From a virus (lineage: Duplodnaviria; Heunggongvirae; Uroviricota; Caudoviricetes): a stretch of 10,141 nucleotides of DNA. The translations under genes and the position numbers were made by a program. Location: IMG/VR virus record IMGVR_UViG_2693429748_000016; one strand, written 5' to 3'. The notes under the pieces were generated by a model that saw nothing but the letters and a program-made list of their open reading frames with translations, was not told the DNA's origin and did no database searches. Shown piece after piece: positions 566 to 9,963 of this stretch; the stretch's first letter is position 1, and each line of letters starts with the position of its first letter.

Positions 566-772
566 TCAGTCAGTGTTTCTGGCTAACCAGCAACGCGCGC
601 CAGATTCGGTTTTAAACGTTTTGCTTTTGGTATACGTCATGGCGGTAAACGTTCCATCCTGGTTAGGGAACACGCCGCACACCAGAGATTCGTTGTTGCC
701 AAGATCGATAGTATCCATGCTGACCTCATTTCCCCTTAACGCCGGGGTGGCGGAACAAAAAACCTGCTGCAT
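566..772 (-). CDS. hypothetical small protein (68 aa)
   Basis: ORF track 566..772 (-). Stop overlaps the downstream start candidate (ATGA arrangement), consistent with a leftward operon leaving the immunity region. Weak RBS. An overlapping plus-strand ORF (573..785) is the alternative reading. Confidence 0.35.
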   Translation of the reverse strand: MQQVFCSATPALRGNEVSMDTIDLGNNESLVCGVFPNQDGTFTAMTYTKSKTFKTESGARCWLARNTD

Positions 773-899
773 AGTTAAAGATTGAACCCTGCCGTCATGT
801 TCTTACGCCTCGGGCTGGCTACTTAACCCCTGACCACTGTCTGGTAACTCGAAGTATTGCCCTGCATTCTGTGGGGCGGGGTGGGTTGACGCCTGAAAC

Positions 900-941
900 A
901 ATAGCATCATTATTTTTTTTGATGTAAATAGCATCGCTATT
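900..941. promoter_or_regulatory. pair of operator-like palindromes (OL-like) downstream of the repressor/TA operon
   Basis: ATAGCATCATTAT at 901-913 and the perfect-armed palindrome AATAGC-ATC-GCTATT at 927-941 (arms ATAGC/GCTAT, 3-bp spacer). Centres are about 27 bp apart. The same 13-bp motif family recurs at 2039-2076. Confidence 0.4.
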
Positions 942-956
942 GTTTTTTGTTGGGGC

Positions 957-981
957 AAGAAAAAACCACCCTAAGGTGGTT
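957..981 (-). terminator. intrinsic terminator for the leftward repressor-antitoxin-toxin operon
   Basis: 7-bp stem AACCACC/GGTGGTT (964-970 and 975-981) with loop CTAA. On the minus-strand transcript the hairpin is followed by UUUUUCUUG (complement of the A-run at 957-963). Lies 17 bp beyond the parE stop at 998. Confidence 0.45.
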
Positions 982-997
982 CTGTCGGCGGGAATAA

Positions 998-1288
998 TTA
1001 ACTGTTTTTGCCTGGATACTGTCTTCGAGAATGCACAATATTTACTACTTCTATGCTTGATGCTGTTACTCGGTAAAGGATGATGTAGTTAGGATGAGTT
1101 ACAATTTCACGAAGACCAAGAACTCGCTCGCTTGGAGGATACAGGTAAGGATGCTCTGTGAGCGGCAAAACGGATGTTTCAATTCGAATTTTCATTCTGC
1201 GTGCTGCCGCGGGATTTTCTTTAGCTATGTAGGCTACGATCTGGCGCAAATCATCACGAGCAGATGGTAGCCATAAAACGGGTAACAT
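998..1288 (-). CDS. parE: ParE-family type II toxin (RelE/ParE superfamily), 96 aa
   Basis: Size and sequence are typical of ParE toxins (N-terminal MLPVLWLPSARDDL, C-terminal PNYIILYRV...VVNIVHSRRQYP). Start overlaps the stop of the upstream antitoxin gene (ATGA at 1288). From memory it resembles ParE2 of the E. coli paaR2-paaA2-parE2 module; not verified by alignment. Confidence 0.85.
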   Translation of the reverse strand: MLPVLWLPSARDDLRQIVAYIAKENPAAARRMKIRIETSVLPLTEHPYLYPPSERVLGLREIVTHPNYIILYRVTASSIEVVNIVHSRRQYPGKNS

Positions 1289-1482
1289 TATTCACCTCTG
1301 TGAGTTGCAGCAGCAATTTGGGCAATAATTTGTTCCATTTCCGCCATTACCTCATCATGCGGAATCGCCGGGCGGGGATCCGCGAGGCTTGCTGCTACTT
1401 TGGCCCGCAGCCATTCGTTGTAACTATTTTCTTGCTCAACTGTCTCAAATTCTGAAACCATTGGGGAAAGGACTGTACTCAT
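1288..1482 (-). CDS. paaA: small antitoxin, PaaA-like (64 aa), partner of ParE
   Basis: 64-aa acidic protein immediately upstream of and overlapping parE. GGAG lies 10 nt upstream of the ATG at 1482. Motif SPMVSEFETVEQENSYNEWLRAKVAASLADPRPAIPHDEV matches my recollection of PaaA2-type antitoxins. Gene context (regulator-antitoxin-ParE) supports the call. Confidence 0.75.
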   Translation of the reverse strand: MSTVLSPMVSEFETVEQENSYNEWLRAKVAASLADPRPAIPHDEVMAEMEQIIAQIAAATHRGE

Positions 1483-1501
1483 TTTACATATCTCCTCTGA
1501 T

Positions 1502-2002
1502 TTAGGCGCGACGGCCTTTTTGTGCAGCTAACCACCGCGCAACCGTACGATCCATTGATTCTTTTTTATCTTTCATCTCCTGAAGCATGTGTTCTTGATC
1601 TTCTTTCGGAAAAGCTCTGAACGTATGGATTAAATCTCGTTCCATCGGCTCTACGGCAAACGGTAGTTCATCCTCTGTTTGTTCTGTGTCTGCTGGTAAT
1701 GCGACTATGTTATCTTGCTGTGGTTCTCGACAATACATCCTTGCAATTTGCAGCAAATCTACCATGTCTGGCCTGATTGACTCAGGGGGAACTTTCAGTA
1801 AGCCAGCAAACTTTAGAACAGCCTCAAGGTTTAGTGGGGTTTGACCATTTAGGTAGTGACTTACCGCCCCTTGTGTTGAAAACCCCATAATTTCCGCCGC
1901 ACGTTCCTGAGTCAATCCCAACTGAGATTTCTTTGCCATCCAGATTTCTTTCAGTCTTCTGGCGGCGTTGAGGTCGGTGTCTGACAATGATTTTCTTTTC
2001 AT
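1502..2002 (-). CDS. CI-like HTH (XRE-family) repressor, PaaR-like; likely prophage immunity repressor
   Basis: ORF track 1502..2032 begins at a GTG; the first ATG (MKRKSLSDTDL..., at 2002) is the more plausible start. N-terminal HTH segment LTQERAAEIMGFSTQGAVSHYLNG. Transcribed divergently from the Cro-like gene across an operator-bearing intergenic region. First gene of the repressor-paaA-parE operon. No Ser/Lys S24 peptidase motif recognised in the C-terminal half. Confidence 0.75.
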   Translation of the reverse strand: MKRKSLSDTDLNAARRLKEIWMAKKSQLGLTQERAAEIMGFSTQGAVSHYLNGQTPLNLEAVLKFAGLLKVPPESIRPDMVDLLQIARMYCREPQQDNIVALPADTEQTEDELPFAVEPMERDLIHTFRAFPKEDQEHMLQEMKDKKESMDRTVARWLAAQKGRRA

Positions 2003-2037
2003 ACATCCAATTCTAATAAGATTGCTAATCACTTTGA

Positions 2038-2079
2038 AATAGCATCACTATTTACTTTTAAAAATAACAGTGCTATTAA
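2038..2079. promoter_or_regulatory. OR-like operator pair overlapping a candidate rightward early promoter
   Basis: AATAGCATCACTATT at 2038-2052 and ATAACAGTGCTAT at 2064-2076, same motif family as 901-941, centres about 25 bp apart. Candidate promoter TTTACT (2051-2056), 17-nt spacer, TATTAA (2074-2079), which would start transcription just upstream of the Cro-like gene. Confidence 0.45.
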
Positions 2080-2113
2080 TTATGCATTGGTAACACATCA
2101 CATAGGGCGGATT

Positions 2114-2377
2114 ATGAATCTTGGAGAATATTTGCATCATTTTCATATAACCCAGAGTTCATTTGCTGAGATTGTTGGCGCATCCCAAGGGATGGTCAGC
2201 CACGTTATAACGGGGCGTGCAAAACTTACAGGAGAAAAAATATTACGTTGGTGTGAAGCAACGGGATGGGTGGTGACCCCACATGAGATTGACAGTAAAA
2301 CCTACCCCAACCCAACTGACGGCTTGCCTGCTGAGTTTCAGGCTAACACACAACCATCGGCGGGGGTTGATTCATGA
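2114..2377 (+). CDS. Cro/YdaS-like HTH DNA-binding protein (87 aa from ATG 2114; 96 aa if started at 2087)
   Basis: HTH-like segment QSSFAEIVGASQGMVSHVITGRAKLTGEKILRW. First gene of the rightward operon, divergent from the repressor. Stop overlaps the next gene's start (ATGA at 2374-2377). Start choice between 2087 and 2114 is unresolved. Confidence 0.65.
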   Translation: MNLGEYLHHFHITQSSFAEIVGASQGMVSHVITGRAKLTGEKILRWCEATGWVVTPHEIDSKTYPNPTDGLPAEFQANTQPSAGVDS

Positions 2378-2799
2378 AAATCAAGCATGAACACATCCGC
2401 ATGGCGATGAAAGCCTGGGCGCATCCGGACGGTGAAAAAGTTCCGGCAGCTGAAATAACCAGGGTTTATTTCGAACTGGGAATGACGTTTCCGGTTCTGC
2501 ATAACGACAGCAAGCACAACACGCTTTATCTCAACACCCAAAAGATTTTCCGTTGGCTGGATAAAGACACCCCTGACGCTGTTGAAAAAATTCAGGCGTT
2601 GTTACCTGCGATCGAAAGGGCAATGCCACCTCCGCTGGTGGCTCGAATGCGCAGCCACAGTTCAGCTTATTTTCGGGAACTGGTGGAGACGCATGAACGA
2701 CTGGTGAGAGACGCTGATGATTTTGTCGCAGTGGCAATCGCCGGTTTCAATCAGATGAACCGTGGTGGCCCGGCAGGAAATGCTGTGGCAGTACATTGA
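2374..2799 (+). CDS. YdaT-like protein (141 aa), second gene of the rightward early operon
   Basis: Begins MKIKHEHIRMAMKAW. Position and size match the second gene of Rac-type ydaS-ydaT pairs. Family assignment is from gene order and recollection, not alignment. Confidence 0.6.
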   Translation: MKIKHEHIRMAMKAWAHPDGEKVPAAEITRVYFELGMTFPVLHNDSKHNTLYLNTQKIFRWLDKDTPDAVEKIQALLPAIERAMPPPLVARMRSHSSAYFRELVETHERLVRDADDFVAVAIAGFNQMNRGGPAGNAVAVH

Positions 2800-2870
2800 C
2801 TGACAATAGCCATATCGAATCGCTCCCGGCAACTCGTGAGTAAAAAGATTCGGTATCAGAAGAGGTGAGT

Positions 2871-3935
2871 ATGGCTAACGCCTGGCTCAGATTATGGCAT
2901 GACATGCCAAATGACCCTAAGTGGCGAACAATTGCCAGGGTGTCAGGGCAGCCAATTGCAACAGTGATGGCAGTGTATATCCACCTCCTGGTGAGCGCGT
3001 CACGAAATGTCACGCGAGGTCACATTGATGTCACGACAGAAGATTTGGCAAGTGCGCTCGACGTGACAGAAGAGGTAATTGATTCAATTTTGCAGACGAT
3101 GCAGGGGCGGGTACTTGATGGTGATTTAATCACTGGATGGGAAAAACGCCAGGTGCTTAAAGAGGACAACGGCAATATTTCGCAAACCGCAAAATCTCCT
3201 GCAGAGCGCAAGAGGGCGCAGCGAGAGAGGGAAAGAAAGCGGGAACAAAATGGCGATTGTCACGGCGCGTCACGAAATGTCACGCACATGTCACGACGAG
3301 TCACGACAGATACAGATAAAGATACAGATAAAGAAGATCAAAACACTATGGTCCATGGCGTAAAAAACGCCACGAACCAGGCAGGGGATGTTCAGACCGT
3401 CAATCCTGGTCAGCCAGCAGGCTCGACACCGGAAGCCGATTCAGCGTATGCGCTGAAAGCCGATTCGGGCGCTGTGCAGCAGGTGATGACCGCAAGGCCG
3501 GAGCAATCACTCCAACTGCAGCAGCCTGAAGCCGATTCCGCCATTCAGCGGGAAGCCGATCGGGTAGCCCCGGAAAACACCGGGCAGCCTGTGGGACGAG
3601 TGGATTATCCGGATGTGTTCGAACAGGTCTGGCGGGAATACCCGTTGCGTGCCGGGGCAAACCCGAAGAAATCCGCATTCAGTGCCTGGAAGGCCAGATT
3701 GCGCGAGGGGGTGCCACCAGAGACCATGCTGGATGGTGTGAGGCGTTACGCGAGATACCTGGCGGCGACCGGGAAAGCGGGAACGGAATTTGTTCAGCGA
3801 GCGACGACGTTTTTTGGGCCGGACCGGAATTTTGAAAACCCCTGGTTGCTCCCGGTAAGCGGCACGAACAACCAGCGTTGTGTGAATCATATTTCTGAAC
3901 CGGATACCGAAATTCCGCCGGGATTCAGGGGGTGA
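2871..3935 (+). CDS. phage replication initiator / replisome organiser (O-like, YdaU-like), about 354 aa
   Basis: ATG at 2871 with GAGG 5 nt upstream (ORF track begins at GTG 2865). C-terminal region (YPDVFEQVWREYPLRAGANPKKSAFSAWKARL...FENPW) resembles the conserved C-terminal domain of phage replication proteins. Lies immediately upstream of a DnaC-like loader. Carries internal iteron arrays. Confidence 0.85.
   Translation: MANAWLRLWHDMPNDPKWRTIARVSGQPIATVMAVYIHLLVSASRNVTRGHIDVTTEDLASALDVTEEVIDSILQTMQGRVLDGDLITGWEKRQVLKEDNGNISQTAKSPAERKRAQRERERKREQNGDCHGASRNVTHMSRRVTTDTDKDTDKEDQNTMVHGVKNATNQAGDVQTVNPGQPAGSTPEADSAYALKADSGAVQQVMTARPEQSLQLQQPEADSAIQREADRVAPENTGQPVGRVDYPDVFEQVWREYPLRAGANPKKSAFSAWKARLREGVPPETMLDGVRRYARYLAATGKAGTEFVQRATTFFGPDRNFENPWLLPVSGTNNQRCVNHISEPDTEIPPGFRG
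2995..3040. repeat. iteron block 1 (putative origin element) inside the replication gene
   Basis: TCACG copies at 3000, 3010 and 3031 (roughly 10-11 bp phasing). The 21-mer GCGCGTCACGAAATGTCACGC (2995-3015) recurs exactly at 3265-3285. Confidence 0.55.
3259..3334. repeat. iteron block 2 plus tandem 12-mer (putative origin core) inside the replication gene
   Basis: TCACG copies at 3260, 3270, 3280, 3291 and 3301 (spacing 10, 10, 11, 10 bp), followed by TACAGATAAAGA x2 (3311-3334) and an A-rich stretch. Resembles the lambda arrangement of an origin embedded in the O gene. Confidence 0.55.
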
Positions 3936-3941
3936 TGTGGC

Positions 3942-4688
3942 ATGAAAAACATTGCGGCAGCCGGGGTTCTTGAACGTATTCACAGACTTGCACCACAGGG
4001 GGCGGTTCCACCGTACCGGACGGTGGAGGAGTGGCGGGAATGGCAACTTGCTGAAGGACGAAAACGCAGCGAGGAGATTAACCGCCAGAATCGCCAGTTG
4101 CGGGTGGAAAAAATCCTGAATCGTTCGGGCATCCAGCCTCTGCACAGCAAATGCTCGTTTGCGAATTATCAGGTGCAGAACGACGGGCAAAAATACGCGC
4201 TGAGCCAGGCCAAATCCATAGCTGACGAACTGATGACCGGGTGCACGAATTTTGTGTTCAGCGGTAAAACCGGCACCGGGAAAAATCACCTTGCAGCGGC
4301 GATGGGTAACCGGCTGATGGCGAAGGGGCGCAGCGTGATTATCGTCACCGAGTCTGATGTCATGAGCGTGTTGCATGACAGCTACGACAACGGCAAATCC
4401 GGTGAAAAATTTTTACAGGAGCTTTGCGGGGTTGATTTGCTGGTCCTGGATGAAATAGGCATTCAGCGGGAGACGAAAAACGAGCAGGTGGTATTGCACC
4501 AGATAATTGATCGCCGGACAGCATCACTGTGCAGTGTCGGGATGTTAACAAACCTGAATCATGCCGCAATGAGCACGCTTCTTGGTGAGAGGATTATGGA
4601 CCGCATGACCATGAACGGTTGTCGGTGGGTGACGTTTAACTGGGATAGCTGGCGTTCAAATGTCAGCTTTCCGGGAGTTGTGAAGTAA
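3942..4688 (+). CDS. DnaC-like replicative helicase loader (AAA+ ATPase), 248 aa
   Basis: Walker A GKTGTGKNHLAAAMG, Walker B LLVLDEIG, and C-terminal LLGERIMDRM...WVTFNWDSWR closely paralleling E. coli DnaC. Starts 7 nt after the replication gene stop. Confidence 0.92.
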   Translation: MKNIAAAGVLERIHRLAPQGAVPPYRTVEEWREWQLAEGRKRSEEINRQNRQLRVEKILNRSGIQPLHSKCSFANYQVQNDGQKYALSQAKSIADELMTGCTNFVFSGKTGTGKNHLAAAMGNRLMAKGRSVIIVTESDVMSVLHDSYDNGKSGEKFLQELCGVDLLVLDEIGIQRETKNEQVVLHQIIDRRTASLCSVGMLTNLNHAAMSTLLGERIMDRMTMNGCRWVTFNWDSWRSNVSFPGVVK

Positions 4689-4706
4689 TTTTTGTTGGAG
4701 GATGTT

Positions 4707-5435
4707 TTAATGGAAACTGTATTTGACGCACTGAAAGCACTGAAAAGAGCCTCTTCACATGTGGTGGCGTCCCGCCTTGGAATCAGCCGTGAAGATGCGG
4801 TCAACGAACTGTGGAAACTGAAGCGCCGTGGTGAAGCGGATAACAAGGGTTCGATGTGGTGGCTGATTCAGGCTGGTGAAAGTGAACCAGTGTCACCGGT
4901 ACCGAAAGTGACAGCGCAAATGCTGACTGAGGCGATTGAACAACATGGCCCACAAACGGCGGATGAGCTGGCACTGATGTTCGGGATTACCTCCCGCCGG
5001 GCGAATTCATCGCTGGCCATGGCAATCAGCAAAGGGCGTCTGATTCGCGTGAATCAGGGCGGTAAATTTCGGTACTGCATACCGGGCGCTGATTTACCGG
5101 CAGAGCCGAAAGCCGCATCCATAGCGGAAACGGATGGTAAAGTCTTTCCTCAGCCAGCAGGTGTTGCGTTACCGGTACAGGAAGCTGCAACACAGGAAGA
5201 AATTAAAACAGAAACTGTGGCGGACATTGTGCAGTCGTTGCCATCGTTCACCGAAACGCAAGCGGATGACCTGGTTTTACCATCGCTGCATATGGCAAAC
5301 CGCGAACTGCGTCGGGCGAAAAGTCATGTCCAGAAGTGGGAGCGTGTCTGCGCCGCGTTGCGGGAGCTGAACAAGCACCGGGATATTGTTCGACAGATTG
5401 TCGATTCCTCCGGTCGTATTGTGTCGGAAAAGTGA
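4707..5435 (+). CDS. hypothetical phage protein (about 243 aa)
   Basis: ORF track 4692..5435 begins at a TTG; the ATG at 4707 has GGAGGA 6 nt upstream. Follows the DnaC-like gene in the same operon. No catalytic motif recognised. Confidence 0.6.
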
Positions 5436-5450
5436 TTGCCGGGGGCGCTT

Positions 5451-5816
5451 ATGGCAAAAGTATTTACACAGGAAGAGCGGGAAAAAATTAAGGGGCAGGT
5501 TGTTGAACTCGTACGCCAGAGTGGGCGCGAGACGTTACGACAACTGGAAGCTAAAACCGGGGCGACAAGATATTTAATAAGCGTTCTCGCCAGAGAGCTG
5601 GTTGCCAGTGGGGATGTATACAACTCTGGCTACGGGTTATTCCCGTCTGAACAGGCTCGTAAGGACTGGCAAAACGCCCGCAAAAAACTCTCGAGGGCAA
5701 AGCTGAAGAAACCATCTGTGGTTGATCCGGACCTTATCTGGTCATTACCAGACGGAGAAATACGCCGCTACGAAGTACCGGCTTTCTATCAGGGTGATTT
5801 TCAGGAACCGTTCTGA
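5451..5816 (+). CDS. hypothetical phage protein (about 121 aa); 3' end fused to an IS-derived segment
   Basis: ATG at 5451 (ORF track begins at TTG 5436). A diverged second copy of most of this gene lies at 5930-6319. The last codons (..QEPF stop) fall within the sequence attributed to the IS remnant. Confidence 0.55.
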   Translation: MAKVFTQEEREKIKGQVVELVRQSGRETLRQLEAKTGATRYLISVLARELVASGDVYNSGYGLFPSEQARKDWQNARKKLSRAKLKKPSVVDPDLIWSLPDGEIRRYEVPAFYQGDFQEPF

Positions 5817-5929
5817 CAGCTTCGGCTTTGAACTCTTTAGAGTAACGTTGGGTTTTTCTGCTCATTATTAGCTCCTTCTGATGCCATTCTATTTCAGGAA
5901 GGAGTGTCCGTTAAACTCAGGCTACCTCA
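5806..5929 (-). mobile_element. remnant of an IS3-family insertion sequence (left end plus first ~20 codons of orfA), IS600-like
   Basis: The minus strand reads TGAGGTAGCC... from 5929 (typical IS3-family terminus), then AAGGAGCTAATA-ATG and MSRKTQRYSKEFKAEAVRTV (ATG at 5865). I recall this as the IS600-type OrfA N-terminus; unverified. The element breaks off after about 20 codons. Confidence 0.5.
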
Positions 5930-6319
5930 AAAATTAAAGGGCAGGTTGTTGAACTTGTACGTCTGAGCGGTCGCGAGACGTTGCGGCAACTGGAAGCCAA
6001 GACAGGTGCGACAAGATATCTGATGAGTGTTCTCGCCAGAGAGCTGGTTGCCAGTGGCGATGTATACAACTCTGGTTACGGGTTATTCCCGTCTGAACAG
6101 GCGCGTAAGGACTGGCAAAACGCCCGCAAAAAACTCTCAAGGGCAAATCTGAAGAAACCATCTGTGGTTGATCCTGACCTTATCTGGTCATTACCAGACG
6201 GAGAAATACGCCGCTACGACAGGCGTCAAAACATAATCTGTAGCGAGTGCCGGAAGAGTGAAGTTATGCAGCGTGTACCGGCTTTCTATCAGGGTGATTT
6301 TCAGGAGGCGGTACTGTGA
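5930..6319 (+). pseudogene. N-terminally truncated, diverged second copy of the 5451..5816 gene
   Basis: 5930-6230 aligns with 5483-5790 at roughly 93% identity by eye. Homology begins exactly at the IS terminus, so the copy lacks about the first 10 codons and its start. ORF track 5981..6319 starts at an internal ATG. Carries an extra 56-bp segment near the 3' end relative to copy A. Confidence 0.5.
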
Positions 6320-6440
6320 GTGAAATTAGCTATCAAATAATCTGTCGCGAGTGCCGGAAGAGCGAAGCTATGCAGCGTGTACTGGCTTTCTATCAGGGTA
6401 ATTTTCAGGAGGCGATACTGTGAATGAAATTAGCTATCAG
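6233..6440. repeat. 104-bp tandem direct repeat (2 units, about 92% identical)
   Basis: Unit 1 is 6233-6336 and unit 2 is 6337-6440, with 8 mismatches out of 104. Each unit contains the gene 3' end (..CxECRKSExMQRVxAFYQGxFQEAxL), a TGA stop, and an abutting start codon (GTG in unit 1, ATG in unit 2). Confidence 0.75.
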
Positions 6441-7051: not shown

Positions 7052-8884
7052 ATGGCCCGCATGTTTGATACATTAGGATTTTACATTATGAATGTGCAAC
7101 ATTTTGATTTTTTTACAGATAATGAGTTTTCTAATCTGGAAAGATATCAAACTTGTAAAGCCATGGCCAAAGGTTATGCGGGCAATTACAAAACCGGGCA
7201 GTCAAGGTTGATGCATGCCCGCTCATACTGCTTCAGCATCGTAGCTGCATATTGGGATACCCTTGCAAAAAAGCAAAAAAGCAGCATTAAAATGAGGGCA
7301 GTACCGCACACTGTTTACATAGAAGACATTCCATGTGATGCACGCGAGCTCGCTGAACGAACAGGTGAGCTTATTGCTCAATTTCCGGCGGAGGACGCTG
7401 GATATCTGATTGGGTCAATTTATACGGTAATGCTGCCATCCGCTTACCGTTCGGAATTGGGGGCTTACTATACCCCCCCACCTTTGGTAGCGCGTCTCTT
7501 GGACCTGGCTGAAAAGTCTGGTGTTGATTTTTCTCATGCATCGGTTATTGATCCTGCGTGTGGTGGCGGTGCATTTTTGGCACCAGTAGCCATTCGAATG
7601 TTAAAAAAAGACAAGGGGTCTTCCCCTGAATGGATGTTGAGGAGAATCAGTCGTCGTTTAAAGGGGATAGAAATCGATCCATTTGCGGCTTGGATGAGTT
7701 TGGTATTGCTCGAATCTGTACTAATGCCACTATGTGTAAAGGTAAAACGTAGATTGCCTGAAGATACAATTATTGTTGCTGATGCGCTTCAGCAAGATAA
7801 ATTTTCTGGTTATGATCTTGTGGTAGGGAATCCGCCTTACGGACGTGTCACTCTCGATATTAAAACGAGAGAAAAATATTCTCGTTCGTTATTTGGTCAT
7901 GCAAATCTATATGGATTGTTCACCGACTTAGCTGTTCGCATGGTTAAAGAGAAAACAGGAGTTATTGCATTTCTTACGCCAACTTCTTTTCTTGGTGGGC
8001 AGTATTTCACCGCGCTGCGAACCCTTTTGACCGAAAAAACTACTCCGTATGCCCTTGATTTCGTCACTGACAGGGATGGGGTCTTTGACGATGTTCTCCA
8101 GGAAACAATGTTGACAGCATTCAAGGCGGGAGAACATAAAGTTCGGGCCCAGGTATCCTCACTTGTCCCTAAGGGGTTGAACAAAGCAAAAATTGAGAAA
8201 ATAGGTAATGTTGATATAGAAAAAGGTGGAGCAACGTGGCTTTTGCCACGCGTTAAAGATGATGCCTGTTTTCTTAATGTATTAAAACAGATGTCTACGC
8301 GTTTAGCTGATCTGGGATACTCAGTCTCTACAGGTCAGTTAGTCTGGAATCGATTTAAGTCGCAGTTGCGTACGACGAAAGGAAAAAATAGCTACCCATT
8401 AGTCTGGGCGGAATCAATAACTTCAGCTGGTTTTCGTTTTAGTGCAGACAGAAAAAATCATGTTCCCTATATCGATATAACCCCACAACAGGGTTTCCTT
8501 GTGACAAAATCTGAATGTGTGCTTGTTCAGCGGACAACATCGAAGGAACAGGACAGAAGGATTTTAGCGGCAATTTTACCTCAGGGATTTATAGATGAAA
8601 CTGGTGGCGTAGTAGTTGAAAACCATATTAATATTGTATATTCAAACGGATTGTTCTCTGCGGTTCGCCCTGATGTTATTGATATGCTACTTAATTCGCA
8701 TGTTGTCGATCGGGCGTTCAGGTGTATAAGCGGAAGTGTTGCTGTTTCGGCCTATGAATTGAATTCAATCCCGTTGCCTTCTCTGGAGCAGGTGATGGAG
8801 ATTCAATCGTTAATTGATGCTGGCGTCCACAGACGGATTATTGAGAGAACTATCGCTGGTTTCTATGGAGTGATGATTGCATGA
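7052..8884 (+). CDS. gamma-class N6-adenine DNA methyltransferase (Eco57I/TaqI-like), 610 aa
   Basis: Motifs in gamma-class order: YYTPPPLV (about 7466-7489), SAM-binding VIDPACGGGAFL (about 7544-7579), catalytic VVGNPPYG (about 7819-7842), with a long C-terminal region consistent with a target-recognition domain. Alternative starts at 7061 and 7088. Visibly lower GC than the phage replication genes. Confidence 0.88.
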   Translation: MARMFDTLGFYIMNVQHFDFFTDNEFSNLERYQTCKAMAKGYAGNYKTGQSRLMHARSYCFSIVAAYWDTLAKKQKSSIKMRAVPHTVYIEDIPCDARELAERTGELIAQFPAEDAGYLIGSIYTVMLPSAYRSELGAYYTPPPLVARLLDLAEKSGVDFSHASVIDPACGGGAFLAPVAIRMLKKDKGSSPEWMLRRISRRLKGIEIDPFAAWMSLVLLESVLMPLCVKVKRRLPEDTIIVADALQQDKFSGYDLVVGNPPYGRVTLDIKTREKYSRSLFGHANLYGLFTDLAVRMVKEKTGVIAFLTPTSFLGGQYFTALRTLLTEKTTPYALDFVTDRDGVFDDVLQETMLTAFKAGEHKVRAQVSSLVPKGLNKAKIEKIGNVDIEKGGATWLLPRVKDDACFLNVLKQMSTRLADLGYSVSTGQLVWNRFKSQLRTTKGKNSYPLVWAESITSAGFRFSADRKNHVPYIDITPQQGFLVTKSECVLVQRTTSKEQDRRILAAILPQGFIDETGGVVVENHINIVYSNGLFSAVRPDVIDMLLNSHVVDRAFRCISGSVAVSAYELNSIPLPSLEQVMEIQSLIDAGVHRRIIERTIAGFYGVMIA

Positions 8885-9963
8885 ATCTGCCTGTTGTTCC
8901 CCCATTGAATGTTATCCGGGAAAGATTACAATTAATTTTCCCTGAAGGGACTGAGAATCGTGGATATTTAATTCGGGAAATAGCTGCAAAAACAATTTTT
9001 GTCATGTTTTATGCTGGTGCGGTTGAGGGGCTGGGGCGATGGATAAGGCCCAGCCAGGTTGTAAGTATGGGAGATTCGCAGGCTGCTCTTACTGATGATG
9101 CGTCCAGAGAAAGCTGGGTAAAGATGACTTTCTCTAAACAAAAGATAAGGCCTGCTGATGCATGGTATGCGGAAAATACGCGTGAGCCAATACGTGATGA
9201 AACTATAAAAAATGGCCTAATACCTTGCAATGCAATTGTTGAGCGTAAAGGTATACCCACCACATCCTCTCGTCCTCGTTACAGTTTGAATCGCTCTTTT
9301 GCAGCACTCTTTGATGCCGGGCTTGAAGGAGATTCGCTGCTGAGTGCAATAAGTTCCTGGCAAGAAAATCATTTGAACAAAGCCGCTCTTGCTAGGTTGC
9401 GTTTATTGAAATCAGGGGCAGTGATTGCTGCTGATGCCGTAGTCGTCACTTTCCCAAATGGAGAGAAGAGAACTTTAGCTCCGGGCCCGTCAAGTACAAT
9501 AGCTAAGGCCGTCATCGAAGTTTTTGCTCCTAATTTTCTTAAGAATCCAACTGTGCTCTGGTTGTCTGAATCCGGGAATAAAGTTGTTGCTCAGGATGAT
9601 GTATTGGCAAAAGCATTGGGGCTGAATATTGATGCCTCAAAAGCACTTCCAGATATTATTTTGATTGATTTGGGAGAGGACCGAACGGGTTCGGACATGC
9701 TTGTAGTTTTCACTGAAGTAGTTGCGACAGATGGGCCTATAAACAGGGAACGAAAAGTTACTCTCACTCATTTGGCTATTGACGCTGGGTTCAGCGAGAA
9801 AAATCTTGCATTCCTTACGGCATTTATGGACAGAAGTGCTCTGCCTTTTAAAAAGGCAATACCAGAATTGGCGTGGGGATCTTATGCATGGTTTGCTTCT
9901 GAACCGGAGCACTTAATTGATCTTCGGGATGGTTATCCGGTAAAGATCAGCCAGAGAAAATGA
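8881..9963 (+). CDS. putative type II restriction endonuclease (possibly BsuBI/PstI family), 360 aa
   Basis: Start overlaps the methyltransferase stop (ATGA at 8881-8884), with GGAG upstream. Same AT-rich composition. Size and M-then-R gene order match BsuBI-type systems as I remember them. No nuclease motif confidently identified by eye. Confidence 0.6.
   Translation: MNLPVVPPLNVIRERLQLIFPEGTENRGYLIREIAAKTIFVMFYAGAVEGLGRWIRPSQVVSMGDSQAALTDDASRESWVKMTFSKQKIRPADAWYAENTREPIRDETIKNGLIPCNAIVERKGIPTTSSRPRYSLNRSFAALFDAGLEGDSLLSAISSWQENHLNKAALARLRLLKSGAVIAADAVVVTFPNGEKRTLAPGPSSTIAKAVIEVFAPNFLKNPTVLWLSESGNKVVAQDDVLAKALGLNIDASKALPDIILIDLGEDRTGSDMLVVFTEVVATDGPINRERKVTLTHLAIDAGFSEKNLAFLTAFMDRSALPFKKAIPELAWGSYAWFASEPEHLIDLRDGYPVKISQRK

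Follow-up and report, generated by a model that had tools for sequence, protein, structure and literature searches.

A putative CP-933P-type immunity and replication module, rather than a copy of Rac, in a cryptic lambdoid prophage remnant

We analysed positions 2114-4688 of the IMG/VR virus record IMGVR_UViG_2693429748_000016 (Caudoviricetes); the whole stretch of DNA, 10,141 nucleotides (nt) in length, is called the window below. Very probably, this region belongs to a cryptic prophage remnant of the lambdoid CP-933P/Qin type as its rightward early (PR) operon, working as an immunity switch and a replication origin in the way that we propose. A first-pass annotation of the sequence had read it as a Rac-like early operon, with the gene order racR-ydaS-ydaT-ydaU-ydaV. 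The synteny with the Rac region of Escherichia coli K-12 is real. Pairwise alignment bears out the equivalences for YdaT and YdaV, while for RacR, YdaS and YdaU there is no match beyond the last residues of YdaU. Rac was therefore given up as the closest system, since only two of the five proteins are homologues of Rac proteins and prophage CP-933P/Sp12 of E. coli O157:H7 is closer. Judged from its sequence, the locus appears to belong to a known class of lambdoid early regions (CP-933P/Rac/Qin), in which it is hetero-immune and hetero-origin; its kind is ordinary, and published work explains it well. The operon consists of four genes, with lengths in amino acids (aa):

2114-2377, + strand: gene of a Cro-type helix-turn-helix (HTH) repressor, 87 aa (96 aa if read from TTG 2087)
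2374-2799, + strand: ydaT, 141 aa (table of open reading frames (ORFs), profiles, homologues)
2871-3935, + strand: replication initiator gene, 354 aa from ATG 2871 (356 aa if read from GTG 2865)
3942-4688, + strand: gene of a DnaC-type AAA+ helicase loader, YdaV orthologue, 248 aa (profiles, BLASTP)

The ORF table places four ORFs on the + strand where the annotation had put them. Homologues or profiles strongly support each of them, so that none has arisen by chance, and 87, 141, 354 and 248 aa are also the lengths of the gene calls in six public genomes with the same DNA. The overlapping junctions that had been described are found at the first junction only, as an ATGA overlap (2374-2377), whereas the second and third are gaps of 71 nt (2800-2870) and 6 nt (3936-3941).

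This operon faces a leftward operon of repressor, PaaA2-type antitoxin and ParE-type toxin. According to the mechanism that we propose, the repressor (166 aa) and the Cro-type protein (87 aa) would compete for operators of 16 base pairs (bp) at a right operator region (OR, 2014-2077) and a left one (OL, 900-942), and the position of the operators over the divergent promoters PR and PRM would make this competition a bistable immunity switch. Binding of YdaT to a box at the start codon of its gene (2367-2384) would activate a leftward promoter and thereby raise the synthesis of the repressor. The initiator would use its predicted winged-helix N-terminal domain to bind GTCACG iterons phased at about 10 bp, so as to open the A+T-rich stretch beside them; the C-terminal domain, together with a DnaT-type tail, would pass the site to the helicase-loading machinery, and the 248-aa DnaC-type loader would place the host DnaB. 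The YdaT-plus-box module and the loader are the conserved part of the region, into which the N-terminal domain of the repressor, Cro, the operators, the body of the initiator and the iterons have been swapped. We infer DNA binding, activation and bistability from the homologues described below.

The DnaC-like call, which the annotation had considered secure, holds. The loader scores 499 bits with NCBIfam PRK12377 (cut-off 389), and it is 80% identical to K-12 YdaV over 248 aa, 87% to the Sp12 loader and 48% to DnaC. It also matches Pfam IstB_IS21 and Bac_DnaA. With the DnaC equivalog model it reaches 296 bits, which is under the cut-off of 357, and therefore we regard it as a DnaC paralogue and not as DnaC itself.

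For the second gene, the profile evidence points in one direction as well. YdaT matches Pfam YdaT_toxin (PF06254) with 36.9 bits (cut-off 21, E = 5e-9) and phrog_163, a CII-like activator, with E = 3e-40; over residues 1-141 it aligns with the solved structures PDB 3c4r (E = 4e-79) and 8bt1 (E = 3e-70). It is 77% identical to Sp12 YdaT and 33% identical to Rac YdaT, the latter over the full length (E = 3e-16). Its Arg-Trp pair R60/W61 aligns with R57/W58 of the Rac protein, a pair that is required for DNA binding, as was found by mutation (PMC11879457). Tetramerisation, DNA binding and leftward activation have been shown for the YdaT proteins of CP-933P and Rac (PMC9986795, PMC8630535, PMC11879457), and by analogy the 141-aa protein would be a tetrameric transcription activator equivalent to CII. 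Pfam and PGAP still label the family "toxin YdaT"; here, the label would seem to cover a CII-like regulator whose operator lies in the sequence itself. That operator is the following element:

2367-2384, either strand: YdaT box TTGATTCATGAAAATCAA, spanning the stop codon of cro and the start codon of ydaT, an exact match to the published operator

In the window, the pattern TTGATT-N6-AATCAA has a single exact match, where 0.07 are expected. A four-way alignment of the window, Sp12, Rac and phage Tritos shows a box core of 23 nt that is invariant, with left flanks that are unrelated, and therefore we take the box to be a mosaic boundary, the left edge of a conserved YdaT module. Binding of YdaT to its box has been demonstrated for CP-933P (PMC9986795) and Rac (PMC11879457). 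In CP-933P, the box is found at the same place, at the end of cro and the start of ydaT (PMC9986795), and mutating the YdaT-box ATGATTCATGAAAATCAA of Rac abolishes the YdaT-dependent activation of a leftward racR promoter (PMC11879457). CP-933P has weak sites flanking its YdaT box; in the window, we found nine matches to further half-sites when three mismatches were allowed (8.2 expected), none of them near the box. The box also fixes the N-terminus of YdaT as MKIKHEH. We were not able to locate the YdaT-dependent leftward promoter in a consensus promoter scan of 700-3000.

Next to the box, we see that homologues of the Cro-like protein end in either …VDS or …V(I/N)HENQA. The second ending is the YdaT box (ATT CAT GAA AAT CAA GCA TGA) read in another frame, so the box is conserved downstream of many members of the Cro-like family.

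The start of the Cro-like gene was set at ATG 2114, because 14 of 14 full-length homologues begin at the corresponding MNL or MKL. Its product matches the transcriptional repressor family phrog_35 (E = 8e-17), and HTH_3 with 20.8 bits, under the cut-off of 23. The homologues form 27 clusters, all of them enterobacterial, one of which is 100% identical and named from Shigella sonnei. The annotation had named this protein Cro/YdaS-like, with similarity of the products of 2114-2799 to the YdaS and YdaT families as the test; we find the similarity for YdaT and do not find it for YdaS. No match to PF15943 (YdaS) appears even at E <= 10 (curated threshold 30 bits), while K-12 YdaS and CP-933P YdaS, used as controls, score 107.7 and 46.5 bits, and BLASTP gives no alignment with either of them at E <= 100. 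A profile of the family, which is shallow (15 sequences, effective number Neff 1.9), aligns with CP-933P YdaS over 75 columns with an hhalign probability of 92% (E = 7e-7); the same profile gives a weak alignment with K-12 YdaS, limited to the HTH (probability 45%). The gene is the first of the operon, divergent from the repressor gene and upstream of ydaT on the ORF map. The 87-aa protein is a Cro-type HTH protein of the XRE family; its position suggests that it is a Cro analogue, and it would be, at best, a distant cousin of YdaS.

A related gene lies unannotated in the RefSeq genome of E. coli O145:H28 RM12761 (about 5090-5450 of the sequence that we label L002). It has one extra base in a G-run, …ACGGGGGGGGAAAG… as compared with …AC-AGGAGAAAAAA…, and this extra base suggests that the cro of that prophage is frameshifted.

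On the opposite strand, the order repressor, PaaA2, ParE (2002 to 998) is that of the PaaR2-PaaA2-ParE2 type:

1502-2002, - strand: immunity repressor gene, 166 aa from ATG 2002 (PDB search, BLASTP, NCBIfam)
1288-1482, - strand: PaaA2-type antitoxin gene, 64 aa (Pfam PaaA2, E = 3e-23; NCBIfam TA_RelB_antitoxin, 94 bits)
998-1288, - strand: ParE-family toxin gene, 96 aa (Pfam ParE_toxin, E = 1.8e-17)
960-985, - strand: hairpin and U-run, terminator-like end of the operon (RNA fold of 945-1000)

By BLASTP, the antitoxin is 75% identical to PaaA2 of Sp12 (ECs_2280) and the toxin 67% identical to ParE2 of CP-933P/Sp12 (ECs_2281). The hairpin, directly after parE, has UUUUUU behind a stem of 9 bp (-15.1 kcal/mol, z = -3.16); a consensus scan did not list it. 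The repressor is a composite. Its N-terminal domain resembles that of lambda CI in a PDB search (E = 2.5e-9; residues 11-91 of the 176-aa ORF), and the alignment begins at the Met of ATG 2002, which gives the 166 aa that the repressor also has in public gene calls. Its C-terminal 44 aa are 52% identical to the C-terminal part of PaaR2, with no match for the rest, and NCBIfam DicA matches the C-terminal part. Among Pfam families only HTH families match, and no S24 peptidase domain is found; the repressor should therefore not be cleavable in the SOS response. Between the repressor and RacR we found no similarity (best BLASTP E-value 31).

Both ends of this leftward operon carry copies of one operator pattern:

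900-915 (AATAGCATCATTATTT) and 927-942 (AATAGCATCGCTATTG), either strand: OL-like operator pair, just past the parE terminator (pattern search)
2014-2029, 2038-2053 and 2062-2077, either strand: OR-like operator set (pattern search)
2010-2038, - strand: PRM-like promoter candidate, TTCAAA-17-TAGAAT (promoter scan, 9 of 12 matches)
2051-2079, + strand: PR-like promoter candidate, TTTACT-17-TGcTATTAA, with an extended -10 (read by eye)

The 16-bp pseudo-palindrome AATAGCAYNNYTATTT has four matches with at most one mismatch in the window, where 0.01 are expected. They fall into two clusters: one pair, 2038-2053 and (on the other strand) 2062-2077, separates the divergent genes, and the second pair lies past parE. 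The sites 2062-2077 and 2038-2053 are exact copies of the operator consensus, and between two of the four sites 15 of 16 positions are identical. A third OR-like site (2014-2029) is weak, with three mismatches; the spacing from start to start is 24 bp throughout. A second operator set past parE2 has been described for CP-933P as well (PMC8630535).

The OR-like sites overlap the PRM and PR candidates. A consensus promoter scan of 700-3000 returned three sites (3.6 expected), of which the PRM-like site is the only usable one, and the PR-like candidate, with 8 of 12 matches, is under the threshold of the scan. A PL promoter was left unassigned, since its spacer would be 19 nt if modelled on PR. 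The A of ATG 2002 sits 8 nt past the PRM-like -10 hexamer, and no Shine-Dalgarno sequence is visible before this ATG. Leaderless transcripts have been demonstrated for paaR2 and lambda cI (PMC8630535). Because of the spacing between PRM and ATG, the missing Shine-Dalgarno sequence and these two precedents, the analogy suggests that the repressor messenger RNA is leaderless too.

With the genes of the switch in place, we can ask whether the first two of the operon are toxic. The annotation had noted that the Rac pair is reported as toxic when derepressed, and for Rac the literature agrees: YdaS and YdaT are toxic on expression (PMC5700377, PMC5700373, PMC11879457), RacR is reported as essential in its function as repressor of ydaS and ydaT (PMC5700373, PMC5700377), and Rac YdaT kills E. 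coli even without Rac, partly by binding upstream of the host gene rcsA (PMC11879457). Were 2114-2799 a toxic pair of this Rac type, the repressor would be essential for silencing the toxins, in addition to its relation to the ParE module. Such a reading could draw on the fact that the YdaT of the window is a true homologue of Rac YdaT with the same DNA box, and on the family name used by Pfam and PGAP. On the other hand, the first gene falls outside the YdaS family, and the far closer YdaT of CP-933P showed no toxicity; growth became slower only on prolonged overexpression of PaaR2 or YdaS, the stop mutation of paaR2, carried on a plasmid, left cells viable, and most cells were in the ydaST-on state (PMC8630535). 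ParE2 is neutralised by PaaA2 and not by the repressor, and no difference in its activity was seen between the transcriptional states of the CP-933P locus (PMC8630535). The authors conclude that CP-933P YdaS and YdaT are regulators of the Cro/CII type and not a toxin-antitoxin pair (PMC8630535), and the literature on relatives speaks against such a relationship between YdaS and YdaT (PMC8630535, PMC5917428). Thus we consider a toxic pair at 2114-2799 quite improbable. Since YdaT is 77% identical to its CP-933P counterpart as against 33% to that of Rac, and since the first gene is no YdaS, the "doubly essential" repressor that had been suggested is not supported. In the literature we found nothing relevant on transposon-essentiality data for this Shigella repressor.

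The reading as an immunity switch of the CP-933P type can be made more precise by comparison with its relatives. The immunity region of CP-933P has been dissected experimentally (PMC8630535, PMC9986795), and its gene order is the same as that of the window on both strands (paaR2-paaA2-parE2 and ydaS-ydaT-O-P). The likeness extends to PaaA2 (75%), ParE2 (67%), YdaT (77%) and the loader (87%), to the identical YdaT box at the same junction, to the C-terminal 44 aa of a repressor without S24 peptidase domain (52%) and to the initiator, which matches Sp12 O in the last 20 aa only, at 100%. In contrast, the N-terminal domain of the window repressor is lambda-CI-like and not PaaR2-like, and the Cro-like protein is outside PF15943, with no pairwise similarity to CP-933P YdaS. 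The operators differ as well (AATAGCAYNNYTATTT in the window, a palindrome based on GTTTAGTAA in CP-933P), and so do the body of the initiator and the iterons (GTCACG at about 10 bp as against TCAACnGTTGA at 15 bp). From the differences in operators, repressor, Cro, initiator and iterons it follows that the window should be hetero-immune to CP-933P and have a different origin.

With Rac, the window has in common a nearly identical YdaT box (ATGATTCATGAAAATCAA in Rac) and the IPPGFRG tail of the initiator. However, RacR, YdaS and the body of YdaU (DUF1376) are unrelated by pairwise comparison, there is no PaaA2-ParE module beside the Rac repressor, and ydaS and ydaT are 22 nt apart in Rac while the corresponding genes overlap in the window. 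The toxicity of YdaT and the control of rcsA have been reported for Rac (PMC11879457), and for the Rac branch only.

The likeness to lambda lies in the layout: divergent PR and PRM candidates with their three operators, another operator set to the left, a probably leaderless repressor messenger RNA, a CII-type activator as second gene, and iterons with an A+T-rich stretch in the initiator gene, followed by the gene of a helicase-loading protein. Unlike lambda CI, the window repressor has no RecA-cleavable C-terminal domain, and whereas the CII fold reads direct repeats, YdaT is a POU-like tetramer on an inverted repeat (PMC9986795). In the place of lambda P there is a DnaC-type AAA+ ATPase as loader, and a toxin-antitoxin pair co-transcribed with the repressor takes the place of rexAB.

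Finally, phages Tritos, Evi, vB_EcoS-640R1 and relatives are about 95% identical to window positions 2362-3933 at the nucleotide level, with both iteron arrays included, while their CI and Cro genes are different. In Tritos, the one phage record that was inspected, there is no DnaC-type loader or DUF1627; the initiator is directly followed by a DUF977/Ren-like gene.

The replication half of the operon has the following parts:

2871-3935, + strand: initiator, predicted to have a winged helix as N-terminal domain, a disordered linker, a helical C-terminal domain and a tail of the DnaT type
2999-3067, either strand: iteron cluster 1, with GTCACG at 2999, 3009 and 3030 as well as GTCACA at 3020; the copy at 3062-3067 is inverted
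3259-3351, either strand: iteron cluster 2, with GTCACG at 3259, 3269, 3279, 3290 and 3300, then AGATACAGATAA twice
3876-3935, + strand: C-terminal tail QRCVNHISEPDTEIPPGFRG, common to Sp12 O (100%), Rac YdaU and host DnaT

A profile that starts at the Met of ATG 2871, phrog_3729 ("replication initiation protein"), matches the initiator with E = 3e-250, and relatives of the initiator carry the name "phage replisome organizer". The initiator gives no match at E <= 10 to DUF1376 (PF07120), a family with which YdaU reaches 92 bits, and its similarity to YdaU is confined to the last 19 residues. An AF2 model of the whole chain has a mean pLDDT of 55, which is too poor for the linker or the tail.

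The window has nine copies of GTCACG, and the initiator gene contains every one of them, where 3.1 are expected; one of 200 shuffles reaches nine. Both arrays are phased at roughly 10 bp and are conserved in E. coli O145 and phage Tritos, and past cluster 2 the sequence is about 70% A+T over 3306-3351 (counted). The Sp12 O gene has its own array of TCAACnGTTGA phased at 15 bp, and ydaU has weaker AAGCAGATGTTCAA repeats. Because the iterons inside the initiator gene co-vary with the body of the initiator, we recognise the pattern of a lambdoid origin. Cluster 2 and the A+T-rich stretch, in the linker-coding part of the initiator gene, are thus the likely origin; its function and the coupling of initiator and loader are read from their position.

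As a side result, the array in the Sp12 O gene consists of six TCAACnGTTGA-type repeats with 15-bp phasing (47390-47479 of sequence L003) and is a candidate for the origin of CP-933P.

An origin of this kind bears on the question of why the repressor would matter. Replicative killing is known for excision-defective lambda prophages. In the same way, derepression of initiator and loader in the remnant, where integrase, excision and lysis genes are missing, could fire a trapped origin and lead to over-initiation in situ, so that the repressor would be needed mainly against replicative killing. The initiator, the intragenic iterons and the loader are intact, the remnant lies without integrase or structural genes between IS1 copies and host genes, and the same initiator module is found in sequenced temperate-phage genomes, all of which would fit. 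Against it, the initiator is split in some genomes (L009) without obvious consequence; the CP-933P experiments lacked O and P and are hence neutral. We regard such killing as possible, though less likely than not.

The tail of the initiator deserves a separate treatment. The pattern R-x-VN-x2-S-x-PD-x2-IPPGFRG is invariant in the window initiator, Sp12 O, YdaU and host DnaT, the tail …VNHISEPDTEIPPGFRG having its host copy at the 3' end of K-12 dnaT (1479-1538 of sequence L004), and positions 156-179 of NCBIfam DnaT match it. All four genes are immediately followed by one for DnaC or a DnaC-like protein. In viral contigs of IMG/VR (L012-L131), at least 118 proteins end in IPPGFRG-stop; they combine at least seven unrelated clusters of N-terminal domains and at least five clusters of C-terminal domains in shuffled combinations. 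Among the matches listed, a DnaC-like gene follows 2-6 nt downstream in 56 of the 115 tail genes with a downstream ORF, and the remaining half or so without phage loader would imply the use of host DnaC.

Among the clusters of C-terminal domains, one is a true C-terminal domain of DnaT (phmmer, 1e-20 to 1e-30), and NCBI names such relatives "DnaT-like ssDNA-binding domain-containing protein". We considered whether the window initiator's C-terminal domain is a whole DnaT C-terminal domain, for which hhalign gave E = 4.5e-12 with the tail removed, and rejected this, as mixed clusters of C-terminal domains had inflated the value. Beyond the tail, the window's own cluster does not match DnaT significantly (E = 0.03), nor does it match the profile of the DnaT-like cluster (E = 0.0014, probability 17%). 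At the level of sequence, only the tail appears securely shared between the window initiator and DnaT.

Tentatively, the tail may serve as a portable peptide by which proteins dock to the helicase-loading machinery of DnaB and DnaC; it could instead bind PriA or PriB, or have another role. We found no relevant description of a link between DnaT and YdaU in the literature. A structural paper of 2026 calls the recruitment of DnaB/DnaC by the PriA-PriB-DnaT preprimosome an open question (PMC13377028), and term searches of that text return no mention of the tail.

Over the coordinates of the operon, the window is 99.9% identical to chromosomal loci, and the six loci that we compared (L006-L011, from public genomes) read 99.8-99.9% where aligned. 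In these genomes, the prophage remnant is a stump of about 10 kb between copies of the insertion sequence (IS) IS1, with ynfEFGH-type DMSO reductase, dmsD and clcB genes and a mannitol dehydrogenase gene as neighbours; integrase, lysis and structural genes were not found in the stump. The host is probably Shigella sonnei, because the Cro-like protein that is 100% identical bears this species name. Among complete E. coli genomes, the best full-length match is only 89%, and the exact YdaT protein occurs in 6106 blocks of the collection. Some loci carry variant calls: the initiator is split into 194 and 123 aa in L009, and the repressor is called shorter in L006 and L011 (145 and 161 aa).

One may suspect that the region is a silent fossil, intact only through the recent origin of the host clone, and that switch and replication no longer work. 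The prophage is truncated and IS-ridden, the 6106 blocks with the exact YdaT and the near identity of the six loci fit a clonal spread, and the variant repressor and initiator calls in some genomes go in the same direction. However, each of the six ORFs that make up the switch and replication module has its full length, and the operators, YdaT box and iterons are intact, two of the four operators still agreeing at 15 of 16 positions. Moreover, the CP-933P counterpart, which is also cryptic, is a demonstrably active switch (PMC8630535). A fossil therefore seems unlikely to us, and a working switch and origin is the reading that we prefer.

Downstream of the operon, two further genes follow in an order, DUF1627 and then DUF977, that is also found in Sp12 and E. 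coli O145:

4692-5435, + strand: DUF1627 gene (Pfam DUF1627, E = 4e-93)
5436/5451-5816, + strand: DUF977/Ren-like gene (Pfam DUF977, E = 2e-18; phrog_142, Ren-like)

At 5774-6336, the window has 563 bp in excess of the otherwise 99.9% identical loci L006-L011. They comprise a piece of 135 bp from an element of the IS3 family and a second, 93% identical copy of part of the DUF977 region (5929-6335, corresponding to 5483-5773), and represent either a local rearrangement or an assembly variant. Past the OL-like operators, two leftward genes (189-772, - strand) for products of 68 and 125 aa, of unknown function, occupy the place of the PL operon of lambda; the 68-aa product belongs to phrog_751 and is DUF1391 in public gene calls, and the 125-aa product belongs to phrog_33007. 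At the other end (7052-9963), the gene of an Eco57I-type N6-adenine methyltransferase (610 aa) overlaps that of a BsuBI/PstI-type restriction endonuclease (360 aa). This pair is a restriction-modification system and, next to ParE, the second module of addiction type. When the whole window was scanned with Rfam, no family reached its gathering score.

In summary, the annotation of the region is corrected to an immunity and replication module of the CP-933P type, not a copy of Rac. A stump of 10 kb, probably of Shigella sonnei, retains a complete switch, a candidate origin, the ParE module and the restriction-modification system. It would be a natural hetero-immune partner for the CP-933P switch: YdaT, its box, the toxin-antitoxin pair and the loader are the same, while the repressor's DNA-binding domain, Cro, the operators, the initiator and the iterons differ, which makes the pair handy for testing the specificity of immunity and origin. 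The only lead with a broader reach is the DnaT-type tail on many unrelated initiators. If it does act as a docking peptide, lambdoid initiators and DnaT would recruit the helicase loader in the same way, and this would bear on the preprimosome question as it is put in the structural work (PMC13377028).

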